Assembly: GCA_000004695.1 (NCBI GenBank)
Contig: CM000154.2
Location: 256,001 to 320,000 of the forward strand
Direction: 5' to 3'
Source: Dictyostelium discoideum
Taxonomy: Eukaryota
Length of the DNA: 64,000 nucleotides
Positions 7,392 to 38,152 of the stretch are shown piece by piece. Below the pieces are notes generated by a model that saw nothing but the letters and a program-made list of their open reading frames with translations, was not told the origin of the DNA and did not search any database. Positions within the stretch are counted from its first letter, which is position 1. Every line of letters starts with the position of its first letter. The position numbers and the translations under genes are program-made.

Positions 7392-7556
7392 ATGAAAAAC
7401 ATTTTTAAAGATAAAAATATTTATATTTTATCAGTTGAGAATGATCAAAGAGATAAATGTAAATCTTATTTAATTTCAAAAAAAGCTTTGGTTGAAAAAA
7501 GATTTTCAAAAAAGGTAAATAAAAATATTTTAATATTTAAAAAAACAATACATTTC

Positions 7557-7594
<38 letters not shown>

Positions 7595-10500
7595 AACATA
7601 TTTCCATTTTTTTATTTTTATTTTTTTAAAGGTGAATATTATAATAACAAGTGAAAAAACTATTTTGGAAAATAAATTTCCAGTTAATACTGCAACCAAA
7701 TTGGGTATAGAGATAATTGATTATGAAACTTTATCAAGAGATATTGAAAGATTTATTAGAAAAACTCAACCAACATCATCAAATGGTTCAACATCAACAA
7801 CAACAACAACAACAACAACAACACAAAAAGGTCAAATTGTATCATTTAAACCAACTTCATCAACCTCAACAACAACAAATGTAATTAATACAACAACAAC
7901 ATCAACAACATCAACAACAACAATTGTTGATCCAATTATATCATTAATAGTACCACCATCAGGTAGTAATAATGGATCATTTCAAATTGCAATATTTGGA
8001 ATTGGATTTTTAGCAGGAGCAGGATTTAGAATTAAAATTGGTAATGATAATGGTGGTGGTGGTGTTTTTGCAAGTAATTATGAATTTCATTCAAGTACAT
8101 CAGTTTTATGTACCATACCAAACTTAAATATTAAATGTGGTCAACAACCAATTTATGCAAGTAATGATGGTGGTAAAACTTTTGGATTTCCAATTCAATT
8201 TTTATTCTTTGACACATCAATCCATAGAATACCAACAGCAAGAGAACAAGATGGTATGGTATTAAAGAGTCAATTGGATAATTTAAAGAGAGCCATTTCA
8301 AATATTCAAACTATGGAATCAATTCTAATGAGACGTATTTCATTATTGAATGGTAATCATGATGATAGTAAATCAATTGAACAGATTTTCATTCAACAAC
8401 AAAATTTCATTGAAAGTGGTGCATCACAATTATTACTTGGTAATGGTGGTACCACCGATCAATTGTTACAAAGTCTTGAGGGTTCAGAATATTCAAGTAC
8501 AAACGATGATGGTGAAAACGATCAATCAGACGACGATGACGACAATGAAGATGATGATGATTTCGTTGAAAAGAATTCAAATCAAGTTAAAGAAGAATTT
8601 TCAGAGAGAGAAATTAAAATATTTATTTCATCACCATTTAAAGATATGCAATTGGATCGTGACCAAATTGTAAAGGTCGTAATACCAAGAATTAGAAAAC
8701 TTTGTATTGAAAGGGACATTGTATTGAGTTATGTCGATCTTAGATGGGGTGTAACAAGTAATCAATCTGAACAATCCACTGGTTTAAGTATGTGTTTGAA
8801 AGAATTGGAGAAATGTAATATTTTAATTGGTTTATTTGGTGAACGTTATGGTTGGTCATCGCAAGAGAAACAAGATCCAAAATCACAACAATTACTTCAA
8901 TCAACATTAGATCGTGCAATTCAAGATTTCCCATGGGTAAAGAATTATCGTGATTCAAGTATCACTGAAATTGAATTTCGTATGCTTTTGAACCAAAGAC
9001 AACAACAAAGAAATGGTTTCTTTTATTTCCGTGATCCATACTATCTCGAGGAGGTTAGTCAAATGGATAAAAATAATTTCGTTTCAGAAGGTCAAAGATC
9101 AAAAGAGAAACTTGAGAAACTTAAACAAGAAATCATTAAATCACCCTTTAAATCATCGGAATATCGTCGTCCAACCAATTTATCAGATGTACTCTATGAG
9201 GATTTAGAGAAATATATTGATAAAAAATATCCATCTGGTAATTGTGAATTAAAAGGTTTTGAAAAAGAACGTTTCTTACATTCAGTTTTCATTAAAAATT
9301 TAACAAAAATTTATATTACAAATGAAAATTATTTTATGGAAATTGATACTTATTTATCAGGAAGTGCTACTAGTAGTGGTAGTGGTAATAAAAGTATTTC
9401 AATTGGTTCAAGTATTAATAGTGGACTATTATCATCTTTAAAAAATAAACCAGTATTTTTAATTCAAGGTGAAAGTGGTTCAGGTAAATCATCATTAATT
9501 AGTAATTGGTTAAAACAACATAAAGAACAACATCCAGAAGATTTAGTTGTATCACATTGGATTGGTGCATCACCAAGTTCAAATAAATTTACATCAATTT
9601 TAATTAGAATTATGAATGAAATTAAAAATCAAATTGAAATTGATCAAAAGATTGCCAATGGTGGATCAAATTCCTCATCGTCATCGTCATCATCAATGTT
9701 TTCAACCACTTCAACATCTTCTGTATCATGGTTACCAGAAATACCAGATGAAACATTTGAAAGTGAAAAAATTGTTTCAGAATTCCCACAATTTTTACAA
9801 TATGTAATGTCACATCCATCATTGAATGGTAAGAGATTAGTATTGTTAATTGATGGTTTAGATAAATTAGATCCAAGAGAGAATAGTCAAGAGTTAATAT
9901 GGTTCCCAAGAAATTTCCCTCATAATGTAAAGGTTATTGTTTCATCGATTCAAGGTAGTAGACAAAGTGAGGTTCTAAAGAAGAGAGGATCTCATATTCT
10001 TTCGATTTTACCATTCACTGAAGCTGAAAGAAAATCAATGGTACGTTTATACCTTCAAAAATATGCAAAGAAATTATCAGATCAACAAGAGATTGCAATC
10101 GCTATTTCAAAATCAACAACAAATCCAAGATTCCTTCAATTACTTCTCGATGATATTTTGGTATTTGGTGATTACGAACGTTTAAATGACCGTATTAAAA
10201 CTTTACTTCGTGCAAAGAATACAAGTGAACTCTATGAAATCATTTTAGACCGTATTGAAAAAGATTATGATCCAAAAGCAAAGGGTTTAGTAAGTGAATT
10301 CTTAAAATACATTTGGGCCGGTAGAAGAGGTGTTGAAATGTCTATGCTTTCAACATTACTCTTGAAAAAGAATATCGATCCAGCTGAATGGGGTTCATTA
10401 TTGGTATTGATGGAAGCTTATATCACTTCTTCATCGGGTGTTATCTCTTTCCTTAATGATGATATTTCAAAAGCTGTCGAAAAGAAGTATATTACAACTC

Positions 10501-12500
10501 CAAAGATTGGTATTGAAATTCATACCAATTTAGCAGAGGCTTTCGAACAATCTGGTGACTTAAATGAAAGAAAGGTTGAGGAATATCCTTATCAATTATT
10601 AAAGAGTGAAAATTGGGAATCATTAAAAAATACCTTAACCAATCTTTACGTATTCGATAAACTCTATACACCAAATCATAAGGTTGATCTCATCAATTAT
10701 TGGAATGTATTGGAGAAACAAACTAAACCACCAAAGAATGCTGCAGAAAGAGATGATCCAATACCATACAATTGTTCAAATGAATTTAAGGCAATCATTT
10801 CACGTTCATTCATTCAAGCATCTGGTTTGGTAATTTCCGATGTTTGGTTTAGAGTTGCATCGTTCCTTGAAGAGTTATCTCAATTTGATGGTGCCGAAGT
10901 ACTCTACAATAAATGTCGTGAACTTTATATTAACAATTCTCAAAATATTGAAGCTGCAAAAGTTGATCGTGCAATGGGTAGAATGTATCTAACAATGGGC
11001 CAAAATGATAAATCCGATAGTAAATTCAGATTGGCACTTTCAATCTACACAAAAGAAAGAGGTCAAGAAGATATTGAAGTTGCAATCACTCTTAATCTCT
11101 TGGGTACTCTTGCCACTAATAGATGTAAATTCGATGAAGCTAAACAAATTCTCAATCAAGCTATGAACATTTGTGAATCCAAATATGAAAGCAACGTTTT
11201 ACTCATTGCTGATATTGCCTATAGTTTGGGTTCAGTTTGTTTCGTTGAACCAAATCGTAAATTAGAGGTTGCTGAAGCTTACTTTGCAAGATCATTAGAA
11301 TTAACTGAATCAAAAGTTGGTGATATGGATGTTGCTTATGCTCGTATTTTAACTCGTTTAGGTTCATTGAATATTGAAAAGGATACCTATGCCGATGCAG
11401 AGGCATTCTTTAAAGCTGCCCTTAAAATCTATGAAGCTAGATTGGGTATTGATCATTCTAGAGTTTCTCAAATTCTTAGACATATGATTTCCCTCTATGA
11501 GGTTCAAGAAAACTATAAAATGGCTGAACAATGTTGTATCAGAGCTTTGGCAATCACAAAGAAAATCTATGGTAACTCTCATAATCTTGTATCGGCCACT
11601 CAAATCCGTCAAGCTTTATTATATAATTCAATGAATAGAAAACAAGATTGTCTCAATCTATTGAATGAAGTTAAAGTTACAAGAGAGAAAGAATTTGGTC
11701 CTGATCATAAACAAGTTAAACATATTATTGATTTAATTAAAGAAATTGATAAACCAATCGTACCAAAAGCTCCACCTCCACCACCTCCATCATCATCATC
11801 GCCATCTGCTTCATCACTTTTAATGAAATCAATTACTTCATTACCAATTGTAAATGGTCAAGCAGTTCTATCTGTTCCAAAACCACCAGTTTCCAGAGGA
11901 CCAAATGGTATCCCAATCCCACCACCACCTCCACCAACAATTAAATTGTACACAAACATGGTATCACTTCAAAGTGTTATGAAACAAAATGTTGGAAGAA
12001 TTCCAGTTGCTCAACCAACTTCATTCAATTCTCCAGTTCAACCACCTTCACCTCGTACTCAACAAGCTATTCAACAAGGTCAACAACAACGTCAACAAGT
12101 TCAACAACAACAACAACAAGTTCAACAACAAATGTCTCAAAAAGTTTCATCACTACAACAACAACCACAACAACAACAACAACAACAACCATCACAAGGT
12201 TATGGTAATCGTCAAAATACTCCATTATTCCAACAACCAATTTTCCAACAACAGTTCCAACAAAATCGTATACAACAACCACAACAACAACCACAACAAC
12301 AAGCTTATGTTGGTGATATGTTGGCTCAATTTGATCAACAAAAACTTAAACGTGTTCAAAATGCAAATGATCGTAGTGGTGCTTCTCAAATCGTTGAAAA
12401 TTTAATTGGTAAAAAGAAATGTAGTAAACCAGTTTCACTTGTAAATAAAGGTTATATGGAAGAATCAAATCAAATAGATATGGGTGCTCTATTTGATTAA
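7392..12500 (+). CDS. STAND-class NTPase: N-terminal BRCT-like segment, IPT/TIG domain, acidic linker, DUF4062, NACHT P-loop NTPase, kinesin-light-chain-type TPR array, poly-Pro, polyQ, C-terminal WH2-like motif. 2 exons: 7392..7514, 7632..12500
   Basis: Motifs read directly from the translation:
- IPT/TIG-like beta-sandwich: PIISLIVPPSGSNNGSFQIAIFGIGF...VLCTIPN...
- DUF4062 start motif: KIFISSPFKDMQLDRD
- Walker A: FLIQGESGSGKSSLISNWL
- NACHT-type Walker B: RLVLLIDGLDKLD, followed by KVIVSSIQGSR
- More than 8 TPR-like helices from about residue 1130 to 1420
- PPPPPPSSSSP and PPPPPPTIKLY
- (Q)n
- DMLAQFDQQKLKRVQNA
A candidate intron 7515..7631 (GTAAAT...AAAG, 117 nt) keeps the frame; the ORF track reads through it. 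Confidence 0.7.
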
Positions 12501-12579
12501 TAAAAAAAAAACCTTTTCTAATTATTGTAAAATAAAATTTAAACTTAATTTTAAATTCATATTAGAGTTATTATTATTA

Positions 12580-12631
<52 letters not shown>

Positions 12632-12782
12632 TTATATCATTTGATTTATTACTACTAGTTACGCCATTTGACAAAGCATTTTCATAGATTGAACTTTTTG
12701 ATAGTTCCATCAAGGCCTGAAATAAAAGTTTTGTTTCATAACTCTACTATCCATAAAATATATATATGTTTATTATTTCAAA

Positions 12783-12790
12783 TTTATTAC

Positions 12791-12884
<94 letters not shown>

Positions 12885-12886
12885 TT
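12783..12886. repeat. (TTA)n microsatellite, about 34 units; a shorter (TTA)n lies at 12574..12630
   Basis: Perfect trinucleotide repeats in the 3' flank of the STAND gene. They generate the spurious poly-L, poly-Y and poly-N ORFs in the track. Confidence 0.9.
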
Positions 12887-12910
12887 GTAATTTTGACCAT
12901 AGATGAACAA

Positions 12911-12920
12911 GATTCGAACC
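12911..12920 (-). promoter_or_regulatory. Extra B-box (exB, GGTTCGAATC) about 52 bp downstream of tRNA-Met
   Basis: The revcomp of gattcgaacc matches the pol III B-box consensus GGTTCGANTCC. External B boxes downstream of tRNA genes are a known Dictyostelium feature. Confidence 0.45.
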
Positions 12921-12971
12921 AATGACTCTGGATACGAAGTTCAGGAGTTTGAATTTCAGCAAAAAAAAAAT

Positions 12972-13043
12972 GTCAAGTCAGAGGATCGAACTCTGGACCT
13001 TAGGATTATGAGACCTACGCTCTACCAACTGAGCCAACCTGAC
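12972..13043 (-). tRNA. tRNA-Met (anticodon CAT), elongator type
   Basis: Minus-strand 72-nt cloverleaf: GTCAGGT T GGCTCAGTTGGTAGAGC G TAGGT CTCATAA TCCTA AGGTC CAGAG TTCGATC CTCTG ACTTGAC. The acceptor stem pairs 7/7 (one G-U), the anticodon loop is CTCATAA and the T-loop is TTCGATC. G1:C72 and the TTCG T-loop argue for elongator rather than initiator. Confidence 0.85.
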
Positions 13044-13071
13044 ATGTTGATGTTTTTGAAAAAAATTTGCA

Positions 13072-13156
13072 CGATAACATTTTACATCAGATCGAAAAAA
13101 ACAAACAACAACAACAATCTCTTTTTTTGATTATTTCATTTTTCATATAAAAAAGA

Positions 13157-13191
<35 letters not shown>

Positions 13192-14897
13192 GGAACCAAG
13201 TTAATTAGAAAATTTCCAGATTTTTAACTTTTTAAAGAAAAATAAAAAAGATAGAAAGAAAATAAAATGAAAATCACAAACAACACCACAAATATTAAGC
13301 AACACAAATGCCTACAAAAAATAAGCGAAATTGTGGATAAAACTCAATTAAAAAAAAAACAATTCAAATACGTCATAAACATCAATCACGAACCAGACGA
13401 TAAAATAAAAAAAGATTTAGAAAAAAGTTTGGACAAAAAAGATGTTTTAATCAAAAGTAATAATACATTCAAAATTCTCACAGACAGTATTAGTACAGTA
13501 ATCTATTTTGTAAATATGTTTGATGCAGAATTAAAAGGACAATTTATAACCACTATAAGACCAAAAAATATGTATACAGATTTTGATTGGTATAAATCAC
13601 TCACAGAAATAGAATGGGTAATAGAAAATGAAGGATGTAAACTAATTAAATCAGAAATTAAAGGCGAAACTCTAATTATCAAAACAGTGAAAAGAGTCGT
13701 AGAAGAATTTGACACTATCATTGAACTAGACAATCTAACATTAATTGGACACTCCAACAAAGGATGGAGAGATCAAACCTCATTACCAGAAAATCAAGAA
13801 GAAAACAAAAATAAAAAACAATCAGATGAACAACAACCACAATCTACATCAGAACAAATACCAAAACAAGGAAAAAGAACAATCATTATCCCACCAATCA
13901 CATCCTCATCTAATGATAAAACATTTATGGCCCTAGATGATACAGCTCAAAAGGTAATAGAAGCATCACTAGAAAACGTAGATGAACTAACAAGAATAGA
14001 GAATGAGATCAATACACAATCGATAAACAATCAAGAAATTAAAACAAAATCAGAAAAACCTATCGAACCACCATCTCCATACAATACACCAATAAAACAA
14101 CACGGCGAAACAAAGGGACTAACAACGGAAGAAAAACTTAGAGAGGCAAATGATATCTTCGACTTCACCAGCCCAAACACTGATGCAATAAGAAAAATAG
14201 AATTCCCACTTTCAATCCCTTCAAATCAATGGTTCTTCTCCTCTCCAATAAAACATATCATGAGTTTCAGCCCAACCTATGGTACACCATCGAAAATTAT
14301 CGATTCACCAAGTAAATTGTTAAACACACCAAAAAAGAAACAACAAGACAAAACAAACAAGACCAACAAAACACCAGTCAAACCAAAATTGGGTGAATAT
14401 GGACAAAAAAGCATAAAAACAAAAATGGATGAAGATATAGACAACTTCAACAAGGAAATTCTAAAACAAATCAATAAATCAAAAAACCCCACAAACACAC
14501 AAGACCAACAACACAACGAACAAAGTAAAGATCAGTTAGAAGACAAAATAAACCAGAAACTTCAAAAGGTAGATAAAAATCTACCCCAAATAAAACTATA
14601 AAGAAAAACACAATAAGAATAGGTGTTTGGAACGTCCAAGGATCCAACACCATCCAATCTGCCAGCATAATAAACACCGTTTTAGACAACAACAAGCTGG
14701 ACGCAGCACTTCTAACTGAAACAAATATAAAAACAAATAAAATTTACTCAATAAATCAACAATATAAAAACAAAATAACACACCACGCACCAATTGATAA
14801 AACAGGACAAGGGGTGTCACAAATCATCATCAACACCCGCAATAGAACTTCCTAAACATCTCAAAAAATACAATAATTCACTCAGTACTTTCTATAA

Positions 14898-34617: not shown

Positions 34618-35886
34618 TCAATATAATTGATAATCTTTATTAAAAGTATTACCAAATAATGATCTATCAATTGAATTATATAAATTTCTAACTTCAACAT
34701 TTGGAATTCCATAAATTGAATCGATTCTCCAAATGGCACAACCTAACAAACCAGTTTCAGCCAATTTATAATAAGTTGACTTTGCATTATCATATTGAAT
34801 TTGATAAATATCACCATTTTGATCTAATTGATAATTTAAATAGGGAGTTCTAGAATTTATATTCCAAAGTTCCATTGAAGTTTTATAACCACTACCCAAA
34901 CCATTCTTATATTGAATTATATCTTTATAATAAACTTTTCTTTTTGAATTTAAATCAATTTTACATGAACTTAAAAATATATTGTAAGGTTCATTATTAT
35001 TATTATTATTATTATTATTACATTTAAATTGATAACCATACCATGGTATTGATAATATCAATTTATTAGGATCAATTAATTTTTGAGTTATCCAATATTT
35101 ATAGATTTCATTTCTAACGACAACTCCATCTGAATTTGGTCTTGCCAAATCGAATGATGAGTCTAGGTCATAGGCATTCACCATAATGAAATCACAATTT
35201 GTTGAAATTGATTTAACATCATAGTTTCCAATTTTTAATGGTAATGAAACTGAGAAATGTGACGATACAATATTTCTTTTTAATGCTTGGCTAAATTTAA
35301 AAATTTTTAATTTATAATTTATATCAACTGGAAATTTAAAATATAATGATGCACCATCAGCTTCAACTTCTTTAATTTGATTAATTATTACATCTATTGA
35401 AGTTTCCATAACCTCTATTGATTTATAACCTTGAATTTCATTATAGGATACCATTAATGAAACCAAAACTTGATTTGAATGAGCTATTTTTATAATTTCT
35501 TTTAAATTTTTTAAATCTCTTGGAATTAATAATATATCAATTGATTCCCATATAATTGATCCAGCATATTTATCTTTATTATTAAAATCATTAAATCCAT
35601 TATAATTACTATTATTATAATAATTTAAATCATCACTTAAACTATAACCAATTATTAATTTTTTATTTTTATTATTATTTTTAAATAATTTATTTAAATT
35701 ATTATTATTATTATTATTATTATTTATATTGATATTATAGTTTAAAATTAAATTTGATGAAGAATTTATATCTGTATCAACCACATTGGAACTTTGAACT
35801 TTTATTTTTTTTTCATTTATAAAATTAATTATACAAATATATATTATAAATAAATTTATTATTTTTTTTTTAAAAATTGATTTCAT
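34618..35886 (-). CDS. Secreted GH18 (chitinase-like) family protein, catalytic motif degenerate (probably inactive)
   Basis: 422-aa ORF with a signal peptide. GH18 landmarks are present: MVNAYDL (MxYD), SIPWYGYQF and GCAIWRIDS. The DxxDxDxE catalytic motif is replaced by EADGASLYFKF (Lys in place of the catalytic Glu). Confidence 0.6.
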   Translation of the reverse strand: MKSIFKKKIINLFIIYICIINFINEKKIKVQSSNVVDTDINSSSNLILNYNININNNNNNNNNLNKLFKNNNKNKKLIIGYSLSDDLNYYNNSNYNGFNDFNNKDKYAGSIIWESIDILLIPRDLKNLKEIIKIAHSNQVLVSLMVSYNEIQGYKSIEVMETSIDVIINQIKEVEADGASLYFKFPVDINYKLKIFKFSQALKRNIVSSHFSVSLPLKIGNYDVKSISTNCDFIMVNAYDLDSSFDLARPNSDGVVVRNEIYKYWITQKLIDPNKLILSIPWYGYQFKCNNNNNNNNNEPYNIFLSSCKIDLNSKRKVYYKDIIQYKNGLGSGYKTSMELWNINSRTPYLNYQLDQNGDIYQIQYDNAKSTYYKLAETGLLGCAIWRIDSIYGIPNVEVRNLYNSIDRSLFGNTFNKDYQLY

Positions 35887-36796
35887 TATTTATATATTAT
35901 TTTATTTTATTTTTTTATTTTTATTTTTTTTTTTTTTTCCCAAAGAATAACAAGGAAAAAAAAAAAAAATAAATAAAGGAGTGTTGATTGTATAGTAAAA
36001 TTTGATAACAGTTGTTTTTTAATGATAGAAAATTAAGACTAAAGGATACCAAATAAAAAAAATAAACAAAAAAAAAAAAAAAAAAAAAAAGAAAAAAGTA
36101 GAAAAATTAAAAATAGAAAAGAAAAGAAAAAAAAAAAAAAAAAAAAAAAAATTGTATATTAATTATAAACCACACCAGTGTGTGTGAAAATTTTAAGTTG
36201 TTTTTTGTTGTTATTTTAAAGGAAAACATCTACTGTGTTAATTATAATAAAAAAATGTTTTAAAATAAATTTTTAAAATATAAATAAATTATCAGGTTAA
36301 AAAAAAAAAAAAAAAAAAACCCAACCAAACAAATATTGGTGGTTTGTTGCACCATCGACGTTCAAAATCATCGATAAGTTTCAAGTGCGATTGTCGCAAG
36401 ATTAGGTCTGAATTCCCACTTCAGATTTTTTGTTTTTACACTCGATAACTTTTTTTTATTTTTTTTTTTTTTTTTTAATATACTTTTTTTTTTTTAATAT
36501 TTTTTTAATTTTTTTAATTTTTGTTTAATTTTTTTTTTTTTTAAAAATATTTATTTATAACTTTTTTTGTTTTCACCCACACCCAAAATAACCTATTTCC
36601 GTAATTTAAAATTACAACATTCATTAATTTTTTTTTTTTTTTAATTATTTTTAATTTTAATTTTAATTTTTATTTTTTATCACTTCCAAAAAAAAAAAAA
36701 AAATAAACAAAAAAAATTTAAAAATTAATAAATTAATAAATATATATAAAAATAAATAAGCAAATAAAATTAAATAAAATAAAATAAAAAAAATAA

Positions 36797-38152
36797 ATGA
36801 TCAATAATATAATAAAAAAATTAAAAATAATAAAAATAATAATAATTTTAATATTTTTAATAAATTTTATAAAATGCGAAGATATAAATATTAATACTAA
36901 TAATACTAATACTAATAATACTAATAATAATAATACTAATAATAATAATACAATAATAATAAATGATGGACCATTATGTCCAAGTAAACCATTATGTCCA
37001 TGCATTTGTGAAGAATGTGGACCACCAATTGGTAGAAAAAATTCAAAACAAATTTTTATATATGTAGCAGGTAATAAACAATCAAATTATACATATTTTG
37101 AAAAGGATCCATCAGTTAAGTGGGAAGAAATCGATACATTGGCATTGTATTCTAATAAATTCGATAAGAGGATAACATGTCTAGCACATAGAAATAATGT
37201 GAAGGTTGTATTTACAATTGAAGAGGGTAGCGTTTTCGATGATTTTAAATATTTGAAAGTCAATGGCAACTATTGGGATGGCTATATAAACACAACTAGA
37301 TTGGTTAACACTCTTTTAGAAAACAATGTCGATGGCTATAGCCTAGATTTCGAATATGGTAATAGACACGGCAAAGATTTAGAATTTTCAAATACTTTGA
37401 AAACACTATACACAAAATTAAAATCCGTCAATGAAAACTACCAACTAACATCAGCATTCAGCGGCTACTATAGCGACGTATTGAAAAACCAAATTCAATT
37501 GGTTGCTGATAATTTAGATTATATAATTATTATGGGCTATGATTTTATAAATACTAAAATTGGTACCAATATAACTAATAGTGCCAATTCACCTATTGGG
37601 TTGAGGAAAATAGTTAAGAGTTGGTGGATGGACCCGTTAGAAAAAAAAGATAGTGCTAAGATTGTTCTGGCCGTTCCGTGGTATGGGCAGATTGCAAAAT
37701 GTGATTTGACGTATGAACAGAGGGCAAATGCGGCTACGATTTTCCAAGCAGATTGTATTATTGATAATCGTACGAGTGTTGTACAAAAACCAATTAGAGA
37801 AATACTTGCGTTGTTAAATAATGATTATTTAATATTTGATATTAATAATAATAATGAAAATATTATTAATAATAAAATAATAAATAATACAATTAAATAT
37901 TCATCTGGTATACTTTGGACTAGTAATACTCAAACTGTGTTTTCAAGATATCGTGATACAAATGGTGATATCTATCAATTCAATTATGATTCTCCATTTT
38001 CAATTTACTCAAAATTAAGATCACTTGGTATTGGTGGTGCTGGCGTTTGGAGTTTAGATAAAATTATTGGTTTACCAAAACCAATTATTGATGCATTTTA
38101 TTTCGCATTTAGTAGACAAGTTATTGGTGATACTTATATTGAAATTAATTAA
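36797..38152 (+). CDS. Secreted GH18 family protein (chitinase / di-N-acetylchitobiase-like), catalytic Glu retained
   Basis: 451-aa ORF with a signal peptide and a Thr/Asn-rich stretch. NVDGYSLDFEY fits the DGxxxDxE GH18 active-site motif, and IIMGYDF, AVPWYGQ and GAGVWSLD are further GH18 landmarks. It is divergently oriented to the paralogue at 34618..35886. Confidence 0.65.
   Translation: MINNIIKKLKIIKIIIILIFLINFIKCEDININTNNTNTNNTNNNNTNNNNTIIINDGPLCPSKPLCPCICEECGPPIGRKNSKQIFIYVAGNKQSNYTYFEKDPSVKWEEIDTLALYSNKFDKRITCLAHRNNVKVVFTIEEGSVFDDFKYLKVNGNYWDGYINTTRLVNTLLENNVDGYSLDFEYGNRHGKDLEFSNTLKTLYTKLKSVNENYQLTSAFSGYYSDVLKNQIQLVADNLDYIIIMGYDFINTKIGTNITNSANSPIGLRKIVKSWWMDPLEKKDSAKIVLAVPWYGQIAKCDLTYEQRANAATIFQADCIIDNRTSVVQKPIREILALLNNDYLIFDINNNNENIINNKIINNTIKYSSGILWTSNTQTVFSRYRDTNGDIYQFNYDSPFSIYSKLRSLGIGGAGVWSLDKIIGLPKPIIDAFYFAFSRQVIGDTYIEIN

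Follow-up and report, generated by a model that had tools for sequence, protein, structure and literature searches.

Switches of the STAND/NLR type signal through death-fold, TIR, nuclease or protease modules, and in the usual STAND layout the effector lies N-terminal to the NACHT domain while a C-terminal repeat arm senses. DDB_G0287407, the gene considered here, lies in a 64,000 nucleotide window of AT-rich Dictyostelium discoideum DNA (contig CM000154.2, positions 256,001 to 320,000; the coordinates below count from the first base of the window). It encodes a STAND-type protein whose family is probably wired to actin through its C-terminal end, perhaps as an input rather than as an output. 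Among its closest known counterparts are the animal proteins NPHP3, NWD1, NWD2 and TEP1, which likewise combine a DUF4062 TIR-like domain, a NACHT domain and an NPHP3-type TPR array. Compared by description, these animal proteins have no WH2 or actin module mentioned at the C-terminus. By contrast, the family of DDB_G0287407 adds BRCT and IPT/TIG domains at the N-terminus and, at the other end, either a tail with poly-proline and a WH2-like motif or an actin domain. DUF4062 itself is described as a TIR-like NADase family found in a CARD-equivalent position, for which activation by oligomerisation has been proposed (bioRxiv 10.64898/2026.05.01.722283).

A full-text search of the literature found no WH2 or actin module described on a NACHT/STAND protein; a known type of actin-binding motif is here joined to a known STAND core in a way not previously described. 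Functionally, the closest precedent to emerge is the sea-cucumber protein AjNLRC4, an NLR physically linked to actin, the intracellular NACHT region of which binds beta-actin and acts through Arp2/3 (PMC8699970); unlike the family studied here, it uses no WH2 motif. Among actin regulators, the 'long' WH2 of WIP carries an extension whose R54 makes a salt bridge with E93 of actin and whose S55, with its small side chain, permits entry toward the nucleotide cleft (PMC7407642). The Legionella protein MavH has a single WH2-like domain and assembles actin in a clustering-dependent manner (PMC10381072). Like the Dictyostelium protein it has one WH2-like helix, and clustering, not tandem repeats, is the proposed source of its activity. 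It is, however, a bacterial effector clustered on PI(3)P membranes, has a capping-protein-interaction motif and is not homologous.

The WH2-like motif of the C-terminal tail

A preliminary description of the locus had reported two poly-proline stretches, a long Q-rich linker headed as polyQ and a WH2-like motif at the C-terminus of the protein. The strings quoted there are exact in the translation of 11748-12500 on the forward strand, which encodes the last 250 residues of DDB_G0287407, and both proline stretches, the linker and YVGDMLAQFDQQKLKRVQNANDRSGAS are all present. The linker is Q-rich rather than pure polyQ, with 57 Q and 34 P in the 250 residues as a whole. The motif lies in the tail but not at the very C-terminus, as 37 residues follow YVGDMLAQFDQQKLKRVQNANDRSGAS, among them a conserved helix, SQIVENLIGKKK, and a terminal motif. 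A third conserved island, VSLQSVMKQNVGR, comes after the second poly-proline tract and was absent from that account. The features of the tail, all on the forward strand, are as follows.

11766 to 11804, forward strand: poly-proline tract 1, KAPPPPPPSSSSP, in which PPPPP is invariant across Dictyostelia
11907 to 11939, forward strand: poly-proline tract 2, GIPIPPPPPPT(IK), with G-x-(I)P-PPPPPP kept across Dictyostelia and in metagenomic relatives
11961 to 11999, forward strand: short conserved helix VSLQSVMKQNVGR (SLQSVMKQN), consensus [SN]-[LI]-x-x-[VIL]-[ML]-[KR]-x-N, with a helix predicted by AlphaFold2 at local residues 387-394
12051 to 12302, forward strand: Q-rich variable linker, poorly conserved and indel-rich
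12306 to 12386, forward strand: WH2-like motif YVGDMLAQFDQQKLKRVQNANDRSGAS, with an amphipathic helix M-L-x-x-F, a four-residue linker, LKRV (12345-12356) and an extension ending in the family-invariant D-R-S
12384 to 12419, forward strand: post-motif helix SQIVENLIGKKK, conserved, with an invariant Gly and a basic cluster, and a helix predicted by AlphaFold2 at local residues 525-532
12453 to 12497, forward strand: C-terminal motif YMEESNQIDMGALFD, M-x-E-[AS]...D-[ILM]-x-x-Φ-F-x-COOH, conserved across Dictyostelia

A bare WH2-like pattern is unremarkable genome-wide: a loose WH2 regular expression matches about once per 10,000 residues of unrelated sequence, and Dictyostelium proteins are full of Q/N/P runs. 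The earlier caution that short matches can occur by chance in K/Q-rich sequence is fair for the pattern alone; what raises YVGDMLAQFDQQKLKRVQNANDRSGAS above chance is its conservation. Orthologs were aligned from nine dictyostelids (D. discoideum, D. citrinum, D. firmibasis, D. purpureum, Tieghemostelium, Polysphondylium, Synstelium, Cavenderia and one EukProt species). All nine retain five islands, namely the two poly-proline tracts, the SLQxVMKxN helix, the WH2-like block with the helix following it and the terminal motif. The consensus of the block is GDMLAQ[FY]...LK[KR]V...DRS[GN]AS.AV.NLIG.K, whereas the adjoining Q-rich linker cannot be aligned across Dictyostelia. Comparison of 62 internal codons at the tail end between D. 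discoideum, D. citrinum and D. firmibasis reveals 0 non-synonymous and 3-8 synonymous differences. The whole proteins of these three species are only 85-87% identical (13-15% divergence), an average at which about 8 replacements would be expected in the tail end. Outside the dictyostelids the block can likewise be recognised in Pelomyxa (P0010), Diphylleia rotans (NILSELQDGIRLNKQVNIADRSSADSLARKMLG) and three metagenomic/Logan proteins (YLEQLQNFSANKLNRAANATRDRSDANKQAKAMLG), and L, D-R-S, A and G are invariant across 12 aligned family tails. Shuffling the last 250 residues produces the loose pattern in 0.16% of cases and the pattern with the DRS extension in none. Because of this conservation, the suggestion that YVGDMLAQFDQQKLKRVQNANDRSGAS is a functionless chance string in low-complexity K/Q-rich Dictyostelium sequence is effectively refuted.

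In the published pattern of WASP-family WH2 domains, a helix with three hydrophobic residues, [VILM]-[LM]-x-x-[IL], is followed by a short linker and L-[KR]-[KR]-[VTA] (PMC3298513). The D. discoideum motif agrees with this pattern at eight of ten positions. In the helix, M-L-A-Q-F agrees at four of five positions, most orthologs having [MIQ]-[LIV]-x-x-[FY], and AlphaFold2 predicts a short helix with low confidence. The four-residue linker DQQK then leads to LKRV, the Leu of which is invariant in the 12 family tails, Dictyostelia having LK[KR]V or LRRA. The family-invariant D-R-S (12/12 aligned tails) corresponds to D53, R54 and S55 of WIP, which is the extension of the 'long' subclass.

The likeness is greatest to WIP/verprolin and MIM/MTSS1 (2A41, 2D1K), which have in common with the tail a Φ-Φ-x-x-Φ helix (LLSDI in WIP, MLAQF here), L-K-[KR]-[TV] and an extension to N-D-R-S-[AG]. 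The D. purpureum motif, LKKVAVNDRSGA, is almost identical to that of WIP, LKKTVTNDRSAP, and the spacing from the Leu to DRS is L+7 in WIP, D. purpureum and P. violaceum, and L+8 in D. discoideum. Proline-rich sequence stands ahead of the motif in WIP and MIM as it does here, and poly-proline tracts likewise precede it in WASP, WIP and VASP. The host protein is different, being a STAND NTPase and neither a WASP partner nor an I-BAR protein, and the resemblance is one of sequence.

Profile comparisons were made with a WH2 reference built from seven sequences (WASP, WAVE2, WIP, two N-WASP motifs, MIM and thymosin beta-4). In validation this recovered 29 WH2/thymosin PDB chains, among them those of the actin complexes 2a3z, 2a40, 2a41 and 2d1k; a single hit at E<1 was apparently false. 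Against it, hhalign gave a probability of 81% for a 9-sequence family alignment (P=1.2e-5, score 23.9) and of 59% for a 12-sequence alignment (P=9e-5, score 20.6). Column-shuffled controls had a mean score of 7.5 +/- 1.9, with 0 of 300 attaining the observed scores, and a reversed control scored 7. When 313 forty-column windows over the whole dictyostelid alignment were scored, the six best (15.4-16.1) all covered the motif, the next reaching 12.6 and the mean being 7.6 (standard deviation 2.1). A search of 177,635 PDB sequences with the family profile matched exactly two chains, 2a41_C from WIP (E=0.38) and 2d1k_C from MIM (E=0.84). Both are WH2 peptides crystallised on actin, and both align in register through the helix, LKK and DRS. 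The signal in this search is the identity of the proteins matched rather than the E-values.

A number of results weigh against the assignment. The match to the curated Pfam WH2 family (PF02205) proposed as a check in the preliminary description failed to appear, as there was no D. discoideum hit at E<=10 for the full protein, the tail or the bare peptide. The best ortholog, from D. purpureum, reached 14.0 bits (E=0.041) against a cutoff of 23.1, so that the motif falls below the Pfam threshold, and a Pfam scan of nine ortholog and homolog tails (10 queries, one tail being entered also as a shorter peptide) returned one sub-threshold WH2 match only. Pfam Beta-thymosin (PF01290) scored 12.6 bits (E=0.12, cutoff 24.8) and covered only LAQFDQQKLKRVQ. 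When plain HMMER was used with the WH2 reference profile on full-length homologs, the D. discoideum motif scored about 0 bits, and the dictyostelid sequences alone gave an hhalign probability of only 12-16%, despite the motif being the best of the 313 windows. The PDB E-values for WIP and MIM carry no weight, because the reversed 38-column family profile also gave two matches, to unrelated proteins, one of them (tau) at E=0.0018; a profile this short and of such skewed composition does not yield E-values that can be read as significance. The 12-sequence profile (A4) had no PDB match. The motif further departs from the pattern, and from WIP and MIM, in having Phe for the canonical Ile/Leu, and it has Asp for the [KRQ] that comes next. 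Relative to WIP, the linker from the helix to LKRV is one residue shorter and, in D. discoideum, the distance from LKRV to DRS is one residue longer.

Further searches added one family member. Profile A1, and phmmer with the D. discoideum tail and the Diphylleia motif, had no match in the PDB, and an exhaustive phmmer search of 1.8 billion representatives with the 67-residue tail returned only a spurious repetitive bacterial ankyrin protein (P0026). A motif-profile search of a 5.8-billion-protein set, with 136 candidates scored, yielded one further family fragment (P0147). On the combined evidence of sequence and conservation, YVGDMLAQFDQQKLKRVQNANDRSGAS is probably a divergent 'long' WH2-type motif, at that level rather than at the level of curated family membership. 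The WH2-like assignment made earlier is partly supported. It fares better than guesses from short motifs generally do, through the conservation, the best profile window, the hhalign comparison, the retrieval of WIP and MIM and the actin-fused homologs described below, and lacks the Pfam WH2 profile.

Several other assignments were considered and dropped. Membership of the beta-thymosin family fell below threshold, although the helix-to-LKK spacing is thymosin-like all the same. A WASP-type VCA, with an Arp2/3-binding acidic segment containing Trp, was dropped as the last 250 residues lack Trp and the terminal 15 contain only four acidic residues. A villin headpiece (KQQNLKKEKGLF-like) was dropped because Pfam scans never returned a headpiece family and the motif does not lie at the terminus.

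The VSLQSVMKQNVGR island resembles the helix half of a WH2 (L-x-x-x-[MI]-[KR]-Q-[NG]) without the LKKV. It was the best window against the WH2 profile in a 19-sequence scan, weakly (score 14.8), and not the best in the other scan. It is possibly a helix-only WH2-like element. The C-terminal motif YMEESNQIDMGALFD is mildly acidic and aromatic with no Trp, and could be a ligand for a TPR or another partner of short linear motifs. AlphaFold2 modelling of the D. discoideum TPR array and tail from a 20-sequence alignment produced a TPR solenoid of 15 helices with a predicted local distance difference test score (pLDDT) >90 to local residue 314. In the tail pLDDT was <50; the short helices predicted there fall exactly on LQSVMKQN, VGDMLA, ASQIVENL and the C-terminus, and there is no confident docking of the tail on its own TPR array. 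This prediction is consistent with disordered motifs whose folding depends on a partner in trans.

Relatives with a fused actin domain

The 20 closest homologs have a common core of BRCT-TIG-DUF4062-NACHT-TPR. In 17 of the 20, poly-proline and then a WH2-like helix come after the TPRs, and in three a complete actin domain is found after the TPRs (Pfam Actin, E about 1e-130), at the following positions.

P0011 (Balamuthia), residues 1440-1809: fused actin domain, Pfam Actin
P0014 (metagenomic), residues 1450-1823: fused actin domain, Pfam Actin
P0019 (Diphylleia), residues 1493-1862: fused actin domain, Pfam Actin

P0019 has both modules, in the order poly-proline, WH2-like motif, poly-proline, actin, while P0017 ends right after the TPRs. 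The fusion is not an artefact of gene models, because P0014 is one uninterrupted open reading frame on a 5.5-kb contig and P0019 is the open reading frame of a complete transcript. Identity is 67-83% between the fused actins (the C-terminal 370 or so residues of P0011, P0014 and P0019) and conventional actins, and 64-75% among the fused actins themselves. These pairwise identities are ambiguous, and the fusion may have arisen more than once or the fused domains may evolve fast. A family whose members end either in actin or in a putative motif for binding its monomer makes a 'Rosetta stone' case that the two are functionally linked. Taking motif and fusions together, it is likely that the tail engages actin at all, whatever the purpose.

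P0012 (Cavostelium), P0013 and P0018 have, in their last 80 or so residues, poly-proline followed by a very WH2-like helix (RSQLLDDIRRRG, GRGDLLEAIKNFG), and a common conserved GWWKQNY motif takes the place of the DRS extension. Two EukProt dictyostelid models are extended at the N-terminus, P0007 by a Rab-like GTPase and P0008 by a WD40 CDC20-like protein. Both give the impression of adjacent genes joined by gene prediction, not of genuine architectures.

Actin as a possible input or output

The module order of the protein is BRCT (weak), IPT/TIG, coiled coil, DUF4062, NACHT, TPR and disordered tail. It qualifies as an NPHP3-like STAND NTPase of the DUF4062-NACHT-TPR type through a DUF4062 domain with a conserved Glu beside the NACHT domain, both Walker motifs and the TPR array. 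The modules are as follows.

7392 to 12500, forward strand: whole gene of the DDB_G0287407 type, an open reading frame of 1702 codons including one in-frame intron; the mature protein has 1663 residues
8607 to 9056, forward strand: DUF4062 TIR-like domain (residues 406-555 of the open reading frame), Pfam PF13271 at 53.2 bits against a cutoff of 24.7
8973 to 8975, forward strand: putative catalytic Glu, the second Glu of SITEIE (residue 528), from the alignment to TEP1
9447 to 10061, forward strand: NACHT/AAA_16 P-loop NTPase module, Pfam NACHT at 35.6 bits (cutoff 26.7) and AAA_16 at 36.4 bits
9468 to 9491, forward strand: Walker A, GESGSGKS, intact
9837 to 9863, forward strand: Walker B, LVLLIDGLD, intact
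10839 to 11750, forward strand: NPHP3-type TPR array, Pfam TPR_NPHP3 at 108.7 bits (cutoff 100) and TPR_12 at 93.9 bits, with helices predicted by AlphaFold2

Aligned by phmmer to the crystal structure solved for TEP1's TIR-like domain (11gz_A; E=2.4e-20), the D. discoideum DUF4062 places SITEIEF opposite SVTEMEV, which contains the catalytic E1008 of TEP1 by numbering. The motif S-x-[ST]-E-[ILM]-E is present in 20/20 homologs, and the protein may, to judge from this alignment, be an NAD+-cleaving STAND enzyme. Because a plausible enzymatic effector, the DUF4062 domain with the putative catalytic Glu, already occupies the effector position N-terminal to NACHT, actin is somewhat more likely to be a ligand, bait or anchor of the sensor arm than an output. 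With DUF4062 there and the usual STAND layout, the TPR array and the tail therefore fall on the side that normally senses.

The reading preferred here, which comes close to an even chance without reaching it, is that the last 250 residues are a disordered, conserved, actin-engaging tail serving the sensor arm in this way. The tail would consist of two profilin-type poly-proline tracts, which may bind profilin, and one 'long' WH2 of the WIP/MIM type (M-L-A-Q-F, LKRV and the extension to D-R-S), and relatives would arrive at the same end state through a complete actin domain fused at that position. Tail or fused domain would present an actin monomer to the sensor arm, and the state of actin, or an attack on it, would gate NACHT oligomerisation.

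The preliminary description saw in the tail a new effector arrangement coupling oligomerisation to actin. The link to actin seems likely, as argued above; the 'output module' part of the claim is questionable, the effector position being already taken by the DUF4062 domain with its catalytic Glu. In this alternative, NACHT oligomerisation would cluster tails that recruit profilin-actin and G-actin and so nucleate or elongate filaments locally, much as Ena/VASP tetramers, dimeric WH2 nucleators and surface-clustered single-WH2 proteins do, with the fused actin domains of the relatives acting as the nucleus. It is a strong rival, to which all the evidence for actin binding applies equally, and a ring of fused actin domains makes an intuitive seed. 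Ena/VASP proteins have the order poly-proline, WH2-like G-actin-binding motif, F-actin-binding helix and tetramerisation domain. A similar order can be read here, from proline tracts through the LK[KR]V motif to a second, short amphipathic helix bearing a basic cluster (SQIVENLIGKKK), with the NACHT domain as the oligomerisation device. In contrast to Ena/VASP, a Pfam scan of the full protein has no EVH1/WH1, the tail ends in a short motif with no C-terminal coiled coil, and oligomerisation here would be nucleotide-regulated. Actin assembly factors canonically have poly-proline ahead of WH2 (PMC3298513), and MavH is a good precedent for clustered assembly (PMC10381072). Against this, the C-terminal repeat arm of STAND proteins usually senses, a single WH2 in solution sequesters or caps and does not nucleate, and the WASP-type acidic/Trp segment is missing. 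On balance an output role appears rather unlikely.

More doubtful still is the proposal that actin is not the partner, the helix-LKRV-DRS block and the terminal motif being short linear motifs for something else, with a convergent or superficial resemblance to WH2. They might bind, with autoinhibition as the effect, to the KLC/NPHP3-type TPR groove of the same protein, or else to a different adaptor. Short C-terminal peptides are common ligands of TPR domains, neither the curated WH2 profile nor the thymosin profile reaches threshold, and the most conserved residues (DRS, A and G) lie outside the classical helix/LKKV core. P0012, P0013 and P0018 moreover have GWWKQNY in place of the DRS part. 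However, pLDDT is <50 at every motif of the modelled tail and no docking on the TPR array is predicted. The only PDB sequences picked out by the family profile are actin-bound WH2 peptides, and DRS itself contacts actin in 'long' WH2 motifs. Without a connection to actin it is also hard to account for the three homologs that have an actin domain fused at this position.

The interpretation of the tail as part of a sensor arm faces difficulties of its own. The gene is single-copy and highly conserved, which is atypical for immune sensors. That DUF4062 is the output is a presumption for this subfamily, as human NPHP3 showed no NADase activity in vitro (bioRxiv 10.64898/2026.05.01.722283). AlphaFold2 modelling of the Diphylleia segment containing poly-proline, WH2 and actin had a mean pLDDT of 48, too poor to judge docking. 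A full-text literature search found no study of the gene, which databases list only as an uncharacterised TPR protein.

A more specific version of the sensor-arm reading is speculative and, as it stands, improbable. For Legionella and other pathogens of amoebae actin is a prime target, and a C-terminal actin domain resembles an integrated bait, as in the integrated decoys of plant NLRs. An ancient TIR-like(DUF4062)-NACHT-TPR family, found in Amoebozoa and Diphylleia, might hold an actin monomer, captured or fused, at the tip of the sensor arm as bait or guardee. Were the held actin modified, sequestered or polymerised, for example by toxins or effectors with which bacteria target actin, oligomerisation and NAD+ hydrolysis would be triggered. 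If true, this would represent an actin-guarding innate-immune or cell-death switch in protists; in the mirror-image version, the oligomer would be a new kind of actin nucleator. Unlike plant decoys, the family here is single-copy and conserved rather than expanded and variable. Should the tail bind actin, this conserved single-copy gene would offer a tractable Dictyostelium model for the regulation of NPHP3/TEP1-like STAND proteins of the DUF4062 NADase type. It would serve equally as a model for the role of actin-domain fusions in Balamuthia, Diphylleia and environmental protists, and for whether protists monitor the actin cytoskeleton with NLR-like machinery.

The gene model and its surroundings

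The open reading frame at 7392-12500 is 98% identical to the AX4 'TPR repeat-containing protein' P0001 (1663 residues), the sole difference being an in-frame 117-nt intron near the 5' end. This intron, at about 7515-7637, is AT-rich, and its read-through translation is a K-run with F/I-rich junk; since both ends encode K-V-N, its splice boundary can be placed only to within 6 nt. A Pfam scan of the open reading frame placed DUF4062 at residues 409-494, the NACHT/AAA_16 P-loop at 686-890 and the NPHP3-type TPR array at 1150-1409, with a weak N-terminal BRCT; homologs have IPT/TIG and a clear BRCT as well.

The neighbouring genes encode an FNIP-repeat protein, an LRR protein, an aspartyl protease, an ABCG transporter, two GH18 proteins, a Glu-tRNA synthetase and a glutamate dehydrogenase, and give no functional context for DDB_G0287407. 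The two GH18 (chitinase-like) genes form a head-to-head pair on opposite strands within 34618-38152, one at 34618-35886 on the minus strand and the other at 36797-38152 on the plus strand. The remainder of the window contains ordinary housekeeping and transporter genes. Immediately downstream of DDB_G0287407, the intergenic region at 12500-13260 is dominated by long trinucleotide-type A/T repeats, the frames of which translate as runs of Y, N or L, as is typical of Dictyostelium intergenic DNA.

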